In this document: piece after piece, positions 21,001 through 24,000 of the stretch
Position numbering within the stretch: position 1 is the first letter of the stretch
Layout of the letters: each line of letters opens with the position of its first letter
Assembly (NCBI RefSeq): GCF_057098645.1
Contig: NZ_CM169472.1
DNA: 64,000 nt
Direction: 5' to 3' (one strand)
Position numbers: made by a program

Positions 21001-24000
21001 CTGCGACCAGCGTGCGGCGAGCGCCAGTTGCTCTTCTTCGTACTGCTGCATCTGCGCATCGGTGAGCGAGTATTTGCCCTGATAATACTCGCGATACTTC
21101 TCGCGGTTGGCGAACTGGCGCTGGCCCGGCGAGTGATCCATCAGCGACACCAGCGTCACCGGCTCGCGCTGCACCAGTTTTTCAAACAGCGGCAGCGTAG
21201 TGTGATGCGGCAGTTCGCAGCGCAGATGCAGGCGGTGCTCGGCGCGGTTGACGCCGCGTTTCTGCGTCTCTTCGATGGCGTTGATCATCTTCTCCAGATT
21301 TTCCAGCCGATCGCCGCCGTCGCGCACGTCGCCAATTGCTACGGCATCCAGTACGGTGGTGATGCCGCTCGCCACCATCAGCGCGTCGTGGCTGCTCATC
21401 GCCGAGTGGGCGGGCCAGTCCACTTTCGGGCGCGGGGTGAAGAATTTATCCAGGTTATCGGTATGCAGCTCAATCAGCCCCGGCAGCAGCCAGCCGCCTT
21501 CGCCGTCCATCGCCTCCGGCAGGCGGCTCTGGCTTTCGGCAAAGGCGCGGATTTCGCCGTCCTGCACCTCCAGCGAACCGTGTACCACCTCGTTTTCCAG
21601 CACCAGTTTGACGTTATTGATAATCATGCAGAGGCTCCCATTGGGTGCAGGCGGTCGGCGACGTCATTGCGTACGGCTTCGTCATGGAAGATGCCGACGA
21701 TGGCCGCGCCGCGGGCTTTGGCTTCGCGGATCAGTTCGACTACGGCGGCGCTGTTTTTGGCGTCCAGCGAGGCGGTAGGTTCGTCGAGCAGCAGAATCGG
21801 GTAGTCGACGATAAAGCCGCGGGCGATGTTGACGCGCTGCTGTTCGCCGCCGGAGAAGGTCGATGGCGCCAGATGCCACAGGCGTTCCGGCACGTTCAGG
21901 CGGGTGAGCAGACGCGCGGCTTTAGCGGCGCAGGCTTCACGCGGAACGCCGGTATCGAGCAGCGGCTGCATCACCACTTCCAGCGCCGAAATACGCGGGA
22001 TGACGCGCAGAAACTGGCTCACCCAGCCAACGGTGGTTTTGCGGATTTCCACCACTTTGCGCGCTGGCGCGGTGACCAGATCGACCCATTCGTCACCGTG
22101 TTTGATCTGGATTTGCCCTTCGTCGGGCAGATAGTTGGCGTACAGCGAGCGTAGCAGGGTTGATTTTCCGCTGCCGGAATGGCCGTGGAGCACCACGCAT
22201 TCGCCCGCGTTGACGGTGAGCGAGGCGCGGTTGAGGACGGGCAGGCGCACGCCGTTTTGCTGGTGCAGGATGAAGGTTTTACTGACGTTTTGTACGTTAA
22301 TCATTTTTCGCCTCGTGGTTCGGGTGTCGGATGCGACGCTGACGCGTCTTATCCGACCTACGGGGAGCGCATTTGTAGGCCGGATAAGGCGTTTACGCCG
22401 CATCCGGCACCGGCTCAATTCTGCAAAACCGATGACACCAGCAGTTGGGTATACGGATGGTGCGGGTCGTCGAGCACGCGGTCGGTTAACCCACTCTCCA
22501 CCACCTTCCCCTGCTTCATCACCAGCAAACGGTCCGCCAGCAGGCGGGCGACGCCCAGATCATGGGTGACAATCACCACCGCCAGATTCAGCTCCACCAC
22601 CAGACCGCGCAGCAGGTCGAGCAGGCGCGCCTGCACCGACACATCCAGCCCGCCGGTTGGTTCGTCCATAAATACCAGCTTCGGATGCGTCACCAGGTTG
22701 CGGGCAATCTGCAAACGTTGCTGCATGCCGCCGGAAAAGGTGGTCGGCAGGTCGTCGATACGGTTGGCGGGAATTTCCACCTCTTCCAGCCACTTCTGCG
22801 CGGTGGCGCGAATATCGCCGTAATGACGCGCCCCGGTCGCCATCAGCCGCTCGCCGATATTGCCCCCTGCCGAGACCTGGCGGCGCAGGCCGTCGAGCGG
22901 ATGCTGATGCACTACGCCCCATTCGGTGCGCAGCAGGCGACGGCGGTCGGCCTCGCTCATGCCATAGAGGGAACGGTTTTCATAGTGAATCTCCCCCTGC
23001 TGCGGCGTCAGACGCGCGGAAATTGATTTCAGCAGCGTGGTCTTCCCGGAGCCGGACTCCCCGACAATGCCCAGCACTTCCCCCGGCCATAAATCAAAAG
23101 AGACATCGCTAAAGCCTTTGCCCGGCGCGTAAAGGTGGGTCAGGTTATTGACCGAAAGTAACGGTTGATTCATTGGTTTTTTGCCTCGCTCTGTTGGCGG
23201 CAATAATCGGTATCGGAGCAGACAAACATGCGGTTTCCGGCGTCATCCAGCACCACTTCATCAAGATAGCTGTGGGTCGATCCGCAGATGGCGCATGGTT
23301 CATCCCACTGCTGAACGGTGAACGGGTGATCGTCGAAATCGAGGCTTTCCACGCGGGTAAACGGCGGCACCGCATAGATGCGCTTCTCGCGCCCCGCGCC
23401 GAACAGTTGCAGGGCGGGCATCATGTCCATTTTCGGGTTATCGAATTTCGGGATCGGCGACGGGTCCATTACGTAGCGCCCGTTCACCTTCACCGGATAG
23501 GCGTAGGTGGTGGCGATATGACCGAAGCGGGCGATATCTTCATACAGCTTCACCTGCATCACGCCGTACTCCTCCAGCGCGTGCATGGTGCGGGTTTCCG
23601 TTTCGCGCGGCTCGATAAAGCGCAGCGGTTCGGGGATCGGCACCTGGAAAATAATGATCTGATCTTCCGTCAGCGGCGTTTCGGGGATGCGGTGGCGGGT
23701 CTGGATAAGCGTCGCATCGTCCGTGCGCTCGGTGGTGTTCACCCCGGTCACGCGCTTAAAGAAGTTGCGAATCGATACGGCGTTGGTGGTGTCATCCGCG
23801 CCCTGGTCAATCACCTTCAACACGTCGCTTTCGCCAATCACGCTGGCGGTGAGTTGTATGCCACCGGTTCCCCAGCCGTATGGCATCGGCATCTCGCGCC
23901 CGCCAAACGGCACCTGATAACCGGGGATCGCCACCGCTTTTAAGATGGCGCGGCGGATCATGCGTTTGGTCTGCTCGTCGAGGTAGGCAAAGTTGTAGCC

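Follow-up and report, generated by a model that had tools for sequence, protein, structure and literature searches.

Three REP pairs in intercistronic gaps of the phn region

The window, a stretch of 64,000 nucleotides of E. coli DNA in which the phn operon lies on the minus strand, carries three ordinary REP pairs of the BIME type, and our analysis suggests that they probably favor expression of the upstream gene over the downstream one through a combination of stabilization and attenuation. The strength of this reading differs among the sites. Confidence is high for yjdM-yjdN, the K-12 allele of which was the subject of experiments, moderate for phnD-phnE, given that a conserved structure past the binding-protein gene points to such a role, and low for phnK-phnL, where the pair may be a tolerated insertion. 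The six units form three inverted pairs, one in each gap, at the coordinates where the initial annotation had located them, and the genes it had assigned around the gaps, all six on the minus strand, are the correct ones (Table 1). It had also counted two of the sites as internal to a single operon, which holds for phnK-phnL and phnD-phnE; what that count missed is that the third is intercistronic as well, within the yjdMN operon (bioRxiv 10.64898/2026.03.23.713779).

Table 1. Genes, gaps and REP units at the three sites, in the order of the mRNA (E, nhmmer E value)
Feature	Coordinates	Strand	Remarks
yjdM (phnA)	30300-30635	-	stop TGA 30302-30300
yjdM-yjdN gap, REP325 locus	30143-30299	-	157 nt; one 77-nt unit
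REP unit, Y-type	30249-30286	+	tail CTTAC; inverted on mRNA; first past yjdM stop; E 5.2e-11
REP unit, Z-type, GCCTGATGCGACGC..GCGTCTTATCAGGCC	30206-30241	-	E 2.4e-9
yjdN (phnB)	29699-30142	-	
phnD	27737-28753	-	stop TAA 27739-27737
phnD-phnE gap	27632-27736	-	105 nt; SD GGAG 5 nt past REP tail
REP unit, Z-type	27695-27734	+	inverted on mRNA; stem 3 nt past phnD stop; E 2.1e-11
REP unit, Y-type	27646-27683	-	head-to-head with Z unit, 15-nt linker; E 4.3e-11
phnE	26852-27631	-	PhnE 259 aa; ATG 27631-27629
phnK	22415-23173	-	stop TGA 22417-22415
phnK-phnL gap	22305-22414	-	110 nt; SD GAGG 6 nt upstream of phnL ATG
REP unit, Y-type, TGCCGGATGCGGCGTAAACGCCTTATCCGGCCTAC	22374-22411	-	first on mRNA past phnK stop; E 1.7e-11
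REP unit, Z-type, GTCGGATGCGACGC..GCGTCTTATCCGACCTAC	22323-22362	+	inverted on mRNA; E 4e-12
phnL	21624-22304	-	annotated PhnL 226 aa; ATG 22304-22302

All the units are extragenic, falling between annotated stop and start codons, and their orientation alternates, a Y-type unit being paired at every site with a Z-type unit on the other strand. The phnK-phnL units are arranged tail-to-tail across a 13-nt linker, while those of yjdM-yjdN stand head-to-head and together make up one full naRNA4/REP325-type unit. BIME-1 elements (RIP/RIB) are defined by a long tail-to-tail linker with an IHF site (WATCAANNNNTTR); we discarded this class, as the sole tail-to-tail linker is the 13-nt one and the IHF consensus occurs in none of the three gaps. 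The REP consensus is reportedly GCC(G/T)GATGCG(G/A)CG ... CG(C/T)CTTATC(C/A)GG(C)CTAC, an imperfect palindrome of about 35-40 nt, and its half-sites were matched by all six units with at most two errors per half. The Rfam model naRNA4 (RF02564), a curated description of a Y-l-Z2 REP pair with a gathering score of 59.5 bits, gave 99.9 bits at yjdM-yjdN on the minus strand (30206-30282), which is the transcribed one. Neither of the other pairs reaches the gathering score on the transcribed strand: phnD-phnE scores 50.5 bits on the minus strand against 69.1 bits on the plus strand (27650-27730), which is antisense to the phn mRNA, and phnK-phnL at most 42.7 bits. The REP HMM behind the nhmmer E values was derived from these same six units and is thus circular, so the identification rests on the consensus pattern, the Rfam model and BLAST copy number. 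Used as a megablast query, the phnK-phnL pair matched a median of at least 25-27 places per E. coli genome, and it is therefore a dispersed repeat.

No repeat is more common in E. coli than REP, and the copies in phn have presumably been apparent ever since the sequence of the operon was determined. They are an already known and ordinary feature of the species; the K-12 RefSeq record annotates no repeat features in the phn region. With two more REP loci elsewhere, the window holds five in 64 kb against about 4.9 expected from the 355 annotated loci per 4.64 Mb (PMC4550694). The Poisson probability of three loci in 8 kb is about 0.02 for a single region, unremarkable on the scale of the genome, and we rejected the idea of unusual clustering, the density in the window being the genome average.

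The naRNA4 matches that exceed the gathering score at two of the sites bring up another reading, namely that these REPs act on the DNA or the nucleoid, as gyrase or HU targets, cruciforms or naRNA4-type nucleoid-condensing RNAs, independently of phn expression. REP325 RNA together with HU has been proposed to condense the nucleoid (PMC4550694), but deletion or overexpression of REP325 was without effect on nucleoid size and no REP-REP contacts appeared in Hi-C (bioRxiv 10.64898/2026.03.23.713779), so that for REP325 itself this role is already largely contradicted. The missing IHF consensus and the location of the phnD-phnE match on the non-transcribed strand also speak against it, and we consider it very unlikely.

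Predicted structure of the gaps and distance to the stop codons

Transcribed within polycistronic mRNAs, the REPs would fold into very stable hairpins that lack a U-tract. The RNA fold predicted for the minus strand has an energy of −60.7 kcal/mol in the phnK-phnL gap (z −6.5), −50.5 kcal/mol in phnD-phnE (z −4.4) and −51.2 kcal/mol in yjdM-yjdN (z −3.9). No T-tract follows the REP stem at any of the three sites, and none of the 20 terminator-like sites between positions 18000 and 31500 coincides with a REP; we rejected a reading as intrinsic terminators, given that the tails past the stems are not T-rich. No sigma-70-like promoter match was found at any REP site.

Two of the genes end very close to the structure. 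The first predicted paired base follows the phnK stop codon at 0 nt, with the core REP stem at 7 nt, and the phnD stop codon at 3 nt, which places both within 15 nt of a REP; the yjdM stop lies about 14 nt from the REP tail and 18 nt from the stem, a borderline case at that distance. Hairpins 0-7 nt past the phnK and phnD stops may therefore slow translation termination there, a possible counter-effect to stabilization. The initial annotation did not take up the report that hairpins at such distances from the stop (0-7 nt) depress the expression of the gene upstream. As summarized in PMC12306157, Liang et al. (2015) found that REPs no more than 15 nt from the stop codon reduce upstream gene expression. 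By distance, phnK and phnD would belong to the class of Liang, Rudd and Deutscher (2015), for which the predicted effect is opposite to that of a stabilizer. Under this alternative, ribosomes would stall at the two stops, the mRNA would be cleaved and the protein tagged by tmRNA, so that the output of PhnK and PhnD would fall. The hairpins past phnD in other species, which usually begin 0-8 nt after the stop codon, are consistent with it, but a lower output is hard to rationalize for a periplasmic binding protein, since such proteins are usually required in greater amounts than their permeases. We regard such down-tuning as rather unlikely.

Reading through the REPs also accounts for two long reading frames. 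The ORF at 21624-22418 encodes 264 aa against 226 aa in the annotated PhnL (38 additional codons), and the ORF at 26852-27694 encodes 280 aa against 259 aa in PhnE (21 additional codons). Orthologs align from residue 1-2 of the shorter proteins onward, confirming the earlier suspicion that these N-terminal extensions are spurious, and the longer forms of phnL and phnE in the ORF track should be ignored. An in-frame ATG inside the Y unit of phnD-phnE (27682-27680) is the RefSeq start of the phnE1 pseudogene in K-12.

The yjdM-yjdN pair is a single-unit allele of REP325

The pair past yjdM is the REP325/naRNA4 element of K-12: it shares the locus, the flanks and the Y-l-Z2 unit, and the copy in the window lies on the transcribed strand. 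Of the three sites, this one is thus a published model REP, and the REPs in phn matter little in themselves. The alleles differ in length, the window having one unit (two REPs, 157-nt gap) and K-12 six in tandem (12 REPs, gap of 657 nt). In a 60-row sample of E. coli genomes, most rows have a span from flank to flank that fits a single unit, and a few, for example O157:H7, one that fits two; in other rows, K-12 strains among them, one flank alone was matched, as expected of a longer array.

In K-12, REP325 is described as having a dual nature, that of a partial Rho terminator and of an upstream stabilizer, which steadies the yjdM mRNA and attenuates yjdN. Its deletion at the native locus raised yjdN about 8-10-fold and lowered yjdM about 3-fold, and on a plasmid the effect reached up to about 160-fold, dependence on Rho being partial; these values belong to an allele of six units, the window having one. 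According to the same study, mRNA half-lives are not in general prolonged by terminal REPs, whose effects are strongly context-dependent (bioRxiv 10.64898/2026.03.23.713779). Attenuation of downstream transcription by REPs was a further point absent from the initial annotation.

Expected effect on expression along the operon

That REP hairpins stabilize upstream mRNA and so produce differential expression is their textbook role, and it had been invoked for the phn REPs from the outset. For yjdM-yjdN the K-12 experiments bear this out, and for phnD-phnE a structured gap kept across Proteobacteria argues for it; at phnK-phnL, where relatives have a 9-nt junction, the proposal stands weakly. If they behave like the REPs that have been tested, the hairpins would block 3'-to-5' exonucleases, and the mRNA segments that end at them (yjdM; phnCD; phnC-K) would outlast the parts downstream. 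Partial, Rho-assisted attenuation would probably add to this, and the expected outcome is a step down in expression from PhnD to PhnE, from phnC-K to phnL-P and from yjdM to yjdN. Genome-wide, tandem pairs of genes with a REP between them show a median log ratio of upstream to downstream expression of 0.96, compared with −0.09 in controls. RNA-seq revealed one phn transcript of operon length under phosphate starvation, with coverage falling along the operon, and, in one sample of low expression, a phnG-phnK unit ending at the phnK-phnL gap (PMC3734233). These data, too coarse to reveal steps or 3' ends at the REPs, are compatible with stabilization. We found no published data on transcript 3' ends, half-lives or protein ratios for the REPs in phn, and a text search of the literature for REP together with phn gene names returned nothing specific, the texts of the RepRanger supplement having no phn entries.

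Variation within E. coli and among other species

The REP pairs sit in the three gaps of yjdMN and phnC-P with room for them. Spacers longer than 1 nt separate the genes at just four junctions of phnC-P (24, 105, 20 and 110 nt), the remaining ones overlapping, abutting or being separated by 1 nt. This layout fits a neutral or selfish origin, in which BoxC-like elements and REPs, the latter moved by the RAYT transposase, accumulate at non-overlapping junctions and persist because nothing removes them, with no selected role in phn, at least at phnK-phnL. Variation within E. coli is in line with such an origin, as both the copy number and the family of the element are polymorphic at these gaps. 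Across 5,426 genomes of the species both gaps are always occupied. The phnK-phnL gap holds a REP pair in 89% of the genomes and an unrelated BoxC-like palindrome in 10%; at phnD-phnE the REP pair is found in 71% (3,873 genomes) and the BoxC-like palindrome in 28% (1,505). The latter (CCCCTCTCCC..GGGAGAGGG..GGGTGAGGG) is unrelated to REP in sequence and is putatively assigned to BoxC by the consensus of that family. The BoxC repeats of E. coli are a GC-rich palindromic family of 56 bp with about 32 copies (PMC2267715). BoxC-like elements fill the same two phn gaps and form strong hairpins too (−24 and −95 kcal/mol); they also occur at phn gaps in Leclercia, Kluyvera and a 'Pseudocitrobacter' locus, and the motif is absent from the window itself. 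Against neutrality stands the fact that about 5,385 E. coli genomes yielded no empty allele of either gap, and that the effects of REP325 on expression are measurable.

The two gaps differ in other species, among which our scan returned no other Escherichia. Wherever phnD and phnE are adjacent (32 species), the gap exceeds 50 nt. The first 60 nt past phnD fold at −18 kcal/mol or below in 26 of the 32, with z at or below −2 in 18; control junctions gave 2/34, 5/80, 1/80 and 1/29. The hairpin is followed by a U-tract in six of the 32, namely Photobacterium and five Pseudomonas/Stutzerimonas loci. That a hairpin of one sequence family or another is kept in about 26 of the 32 proteobacterial species supports a selected role as stabilizer or attenuator, and such conservation of structure among unrelated sequences in distant species is hard to reconcile with neutral insertion past phnD.

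At phnK-phnL, 53 of 80 species have a junction of no more than 30 nt. In Citrobacter sp. FP75 it is a 9-nt gap (TAAGAGGCCAACATG), the 9-nt junction of Citrobacter type being TAAGAGGCCAAC, and a near-identical gap of 9 nt is present in Leclercia. Comparison of these sequences indicates that the ancestral junction was about 9 nt long and unstructured, and the short junctions of these relatives mean that the operon works without a hairpin there. Independent insertions of species-specific REP types were found in Enterobacter (one or three units), Citrobacter werkmanii (two), Kluyvera (one), Cedecea, several Pseudomonas and a Mesorhizobium. Because REP-like elements invaded this junction independently in several lineages, a function is less certain here, and both the short ancestral gap and these inserts agree with neutral insertion. 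Weighing all this, we hold the neutral origin to be possible though doubtful.

Discussion

The combination of stabilization and attenuation remains our preferred reading, and it could be taken further. The two intra-operon gaps may be 'hairpin slots' selected for structure and not for sequence, in which REP, BoxC and unique hairpins are interchangeable parts for tuning expression. On this view phnK-phnL would have been invaded again and again because a hairpin at that point usefully sets the C-P lyase core (phnG-K) apart from the accessory phnL-P genes. We put this forward tentatively. If true, allelic exchange at the slots would change the stoichiometry of the operon between strains. More generally, strain differences at the gaps, including the one to six units of REP325, could shift the stoichiometry of phosphonate-utilization proteins without any coding change. 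With two unrelated families in the same slots and relatives whose junction is empty, the phn region is a natural experiment on the selection of hairpins.

Intrinsic attenuators likewise consist of a stable GC-rich intercistronic hairpin, but past the stem of the REP pairs in E. coli there is no T-run. Intercistronic REPs lie between the genes for binding protein and permease of the ABC importers in malE-malF and hisJ-hisQ, and the order of phnD (periplasmic binding protein), REP pair and phnE (permease) resembles this arrangement. As in the mal and his operons, the hairpin stands directly 3' of the binding-protein gene and lacks a U-tract, and expression would be expected to be higher upstream of it than downstream.

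REP pairs in the gaps of the phn region

A 1.7-kb phnL-phnK query matched 5,425 of 5,426 complete E. coli genomes, which identifies the window as E. coli, and was identical to O145 strain RM9872. We placed the phn genes using the ORF list of the window and the RefSeq annotation of K-12 and RM9872, the latter being identical to the window across the stretches compared. Spacers longer than 1 nt separate the genes at four of the 13 phnC-P junctions (24, 105, 20 and 110 nt), the others overlapping, abutting or having a 1-nt spacer, and the REP elements lie where they do because that is where room exists between genes.

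Genes and intercistronic gaps of the phn region in the window (genes placed from the ORF list and RefSeq)
Feature	Position	Strand	Remark
phnP	18753-19511	minus	one end of the phnP-phnM run
phnM	20491-21627	minus	
phnL	21624-22304	minus	
phnK-phnL gap	22305-22414	minus	110 nt
phnK	22415-23173	minus	
phnE	26852-27631	minus	
phnD-phnE gap	27632-27736	minus	105 nt
phnD	27737-28753	minus	
phnC	28778-29566	minus	
yjdN	29699-30142	minus	
yjdM-yjdN gap	30143-30299	minus	157 nt
yjdM (phnA)	30300-30635	minus	

The REP positions named in the initial annotation fall exactly in the phnK-phnL, phnD-phnE and yjdM-yjdN gaps, and each gap does hold a pair: a Y-type unit (GCCGGATGCGGCG...CGCCTTATCCGGCCTAC) and, facing the other way, a Z-type unit (G[T/C]C[G/T]GATGCGACGC...GCGTCTTATC[C/A]G[A/G]CC). 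None of the six units departs from the classical half-site consensus by more than two errors per half, all can be aligned to one another over their full length, and inverted-repeat detection found palindromes both within and between units. The curated Rfam model naRNA4, built on one Y-l-Z2 REP pair (gathering score 59.5), scored above this threshold at yjdM-yjdN (99.9 bits, 30206-30282, minus strand) and phnD-phnE (69.1 bits, 27650-27730, plus strand), and lower at the tail-to-tail pair of phnK-phnL (22325-22409). A BIME-1/RIP identity was ruled out, as the three gaps contain no IHF consensus. The elements are beyond chance as sequences; their clustering is not, and is unremarkable genome-wide. 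A REP-pair query found a median of 25-27 places per E. coli genome, the 64-kb window holds five REP loci where 355 annotated loci in 4.64 Mb (PMC4550694) predict 4.9, and the Poisson probability of three loci within 8 kb is about 0.02 for one region.

Elsewhere in the window, a lone, short, degenerate REP (GCCTGATGTAACGCTGTCTTATCAGGCC, 35920-35947) lies about 14 nt past the proP stop and before pmrR, as calculated by offset from the RM9872 annotation, and two oppositely oriented units (48717-48744 and 48777-48814) sit between the convergent genes melB (ending at 48692) and yjdF (ending at 48831). The window has an intact phnE, without the 8-bp insertion, as well as intact phnM (20491-21627) and melB (47247-48692); in RM9872, the best-matching genome, phnM (L002 8306-9028) is 414 nt shorter and melB carries an IS3 element (L084 14431-17165). 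The source of the window is thus a close relative and not RM9872 itself. Beyond phnP/yjdP, RM9872 encodes an ABC sugar transporter and a hybrid sensor kinase, and large ORFs of the window (~14000-18700) lie at matching positions. This flank is strain-specific, since its K-12 counterpart (L001 1-3200) carries alsB-alsR-rpiB instead.

Translation through the REP elements had been proposed to create spurious N-terminal extensions, and we found this to be so: the mechanical ORFs of phnL and phnE encode 264 and 280 aa, against 226 and 259 aa in the annotation, and alignments with orthologues from 80 other species begin at residue 1-2 of the short forms. The K-12 RefSeq pseudogene phnE1 (b4583; L001 11444-12282) is annotated from an ATG within the Y-type REP (the ATG of GGATGCGG; 27680-27682 in the window), 17 codons upstream of the RM9872 RefSeq phnE start, where the orthologue alignments begin. 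It is a spurious extension of the same kind.

Predicted RNA structure

On the mRNA strand, the folding energies predicted for the phnK-phnL, phnD-phnE and yjdM-yjdN gaps are -60.7, -50.5 and -51.2 kcal/mol; relative to dinucleotide shuffles, the z-scores are -6.5, -4.4 and -3.9. The minimum-energy form is a single long composite hairpin in the first two, with the two inverted units paired together, and two separate REP hairpins in the third. No T-run follows the hairpins at any of the three sites, and terminators were rejected there, as a terminator scan gave no match. The first base past the phnK stop codon is already predicted to pair (core REP stem at 7 nt), and pairing starts 3 nt past the phnD stop codon; past that of yjdM, the REP tail starts at about 14 nt and the stem at 18 nt. 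Both phnL (GAGG) and phnE (GGAG) have their Shine-Dalgarno sequence downstream of the last REP and ahead of the start codon. By analogy with Liang et al. (2015), as far as summarised in PMC12306157, hairpins so close to the stop codons might instead lower the output of PhnK and PhnD.

Alleles within E. coli

Allele-specific queries against the complete genomes showed that both intra-operon gaps are dimorphic. At phnK-phnL, 4,839 genomes carry the REP pair of the window and 546 (10%) a 176-nt gap with two inverted copies of another element; at phnD-phnE, the corresponding numbers are 3,873 and 1,505 (28%), the latter with one or two copies. This alternative is a GC-rich palindrome unrelated to REP (CCCCTC[T/A]CCC..GGGAGAGGG..), which, from its consensus, we take to belong to the BoxC family. 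That family exists in E. coli (PMC2267715). The BoxC-like alleles, exemplified by E. coli WCHEC035125 (L003 8701-8876 at phnK-phnL and 14094-14154 at phnD-phnE), likewise have strong predicted folds (-95 and -24 kcal/mol, respectively). The two classes account for 5,385 of the 5,387 genomes having both phnK-phnL flanks, and at phnD-phnE their total is 5,378, where the flank query counted 5,288 genomes when ≥80% coverage was required and 5,392 when any match was accepted. Synthetic empty-junction queries for either gap gave, over the whole ranking, only two-piece matches with an insert, so that an empty allele is absent or very rare in E. coli.

Comparison between species

We searched one genome per species with PhnK, obtaining 80 loci in which PhnC/D/E/F/J/K/L/M were located by tblastn. 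The phnK-phnL gap is at most 30 nt in 53 of them and 7-10 nt in eight of the 15 Enterobacteriaceae; Citrobacter sp. FP75 reads TAA GAGGCCAAC ATG, and Leclercia has a near-identical 9-nt gap. Across the scan, the first 60 nt past the phnK stop are no more structured than control junctions. Structured inserts are sporadic and of local REP type, with one unit in Enterobacter cloacae, three in E. asburiae, two in Citrobacter werkmanii and one in Kluyvera; Cedecea also has an insert, and the locus labelled Pseudocitrobacter faecalis has four BoxC-like copies. Four Pseudomonas (L047, L048, L055, L067) and one Mesorhizobium (L078) carry strongly structured inserts, presumably local REP families, that measure 82-208 nt and fold at -52 to -128 kcal/mol; several related loci of Pseudomonas/Stutzerimonas and Mesorhizobium have a junction of 2-11 nt. 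The phnK-phnL junction seems to be a repeated target of insertion. Tight junctions with sporadic local inserts imply that it was tight ancestrally and has been invaded many times, the E. coli pair being a derived insertion. Neutral or selfish insertion of REPs into the sole permissive junctions has its strongest case here.

The Pseudocitrobacter locus (L004; QNRL01000011.1, strain DSM 27453) encodes phn proteins 94-99% identical to those of E. coli, nearer than the Citrobacter or Enterobacter ones are, and has four BoxC-like palindromes in each of the two gaps (298 and 251 nt), which suggests that the locus was transferred recently or else was mislabelled or contaminated.

Where phnD and phnE are adjacent, their gap exceeds 50 nt in all 32 species (median 68), and over its first 60 nt the folding energy reaches at least -18 kcal/mol in 26 and z is ≤-2 in 18; the corresponding counts at control junctions were 2/34 (phnC), 5/80 (phnJ), 1/80 (phnL) and 1/29 (phnF). 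The post-phnD hairpins are formed by REPs, by BoxC-like elements or by unique sequences. They generally start 0-8 nt past the stop codon, and in six of the 32 (Photobacterium and five Pseudomonas/Stutzerimonas loci) a U-tract follows. Structure is kept while sequence is not, as would be expected if a stem-loop 3' of the binding-protein gene were under selection.

REP325 and the proposed mechanism

In K-12, the yjdN-yjdM gap spans 657 nt, and its 12 REP units make up six tandem repeats that are nearly identical (L001 14743-15399). This array, known as REP325, gives rise to naRNA1-6 (PMC4550694). The yjdM-yjdN query matched 3,703 of 5,426 E. coli genomes at ≥80% coverage. In a 60-row sample, most flank-to-flank spans fit one repeat and a few fit two (e.g., O157:H7), while in the remaining rows, K-12 strains included, the yjdN side alone matched, as expected from a longer array. 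According to a 2026 preprint (bioRxiv 10.64898/2026.03.23.713779), REP325 is a partly Rho-dependent attenuator within the yjdMN operon, its deletion raising yjdN about 8-10-fold, and stabilises yjdM mRNA about 3-fold at the native locus. The stabilisation and differential expression proposed in the initial annotation are therefore demonstrated for the K-12 allele of this gap. Its placing of two sites inside one operon holds for phnK-phnL and phnD-phnE but leaves out that the third is also intercistronic, as REP325 acts inside yjdMN. The same preprint found that REP325 does not compact the nucleoid, which contradicts, for this array, a DNA or nucleoid role of the pairs. For REP-separated tandem gene pairs genome-wide, it reports a bias to upstream expression that varies widely, and no general effect on half-lives.

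The elements are REP pairs within transcription units, with stable predicted folds, without U-tracts and adjoining upstream stops. Their hairpins would protect the mRNA upstream of them against 3' exonucleases and would also act as partial attenuators of transcription, and together these effects would give PhnD above PhnE, phnC-K above phnL-P and yjdM above yjdN. We consider this stabiliser/attenuator mechanism very probable at yjdM-yjdN, somewhat favoured at phnD-phnE and only tentative at phnK-phnL. In one low-expression RNA sample (PMC3734233), a phnG-phnK unit was assembled that ends at its 3' side in the REP gap, which is compatible with the mechanism but not decisive.

The phn REP pairs are already known, being a familiar element class in a well-studied operon, and the yjdM-yjdN element is the best-studied REP in E. 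coli, REP325, present as one repeat in the window (30143-30299) and six in K-12. New within the literature searched are the alternation of two repeat families in the same two gaps without any empty allele, the family-independent hairpin after phnD and the recurrent invasion of the phnK-phnL junction. These details refine, and do not change, the picture of the phn REPs.
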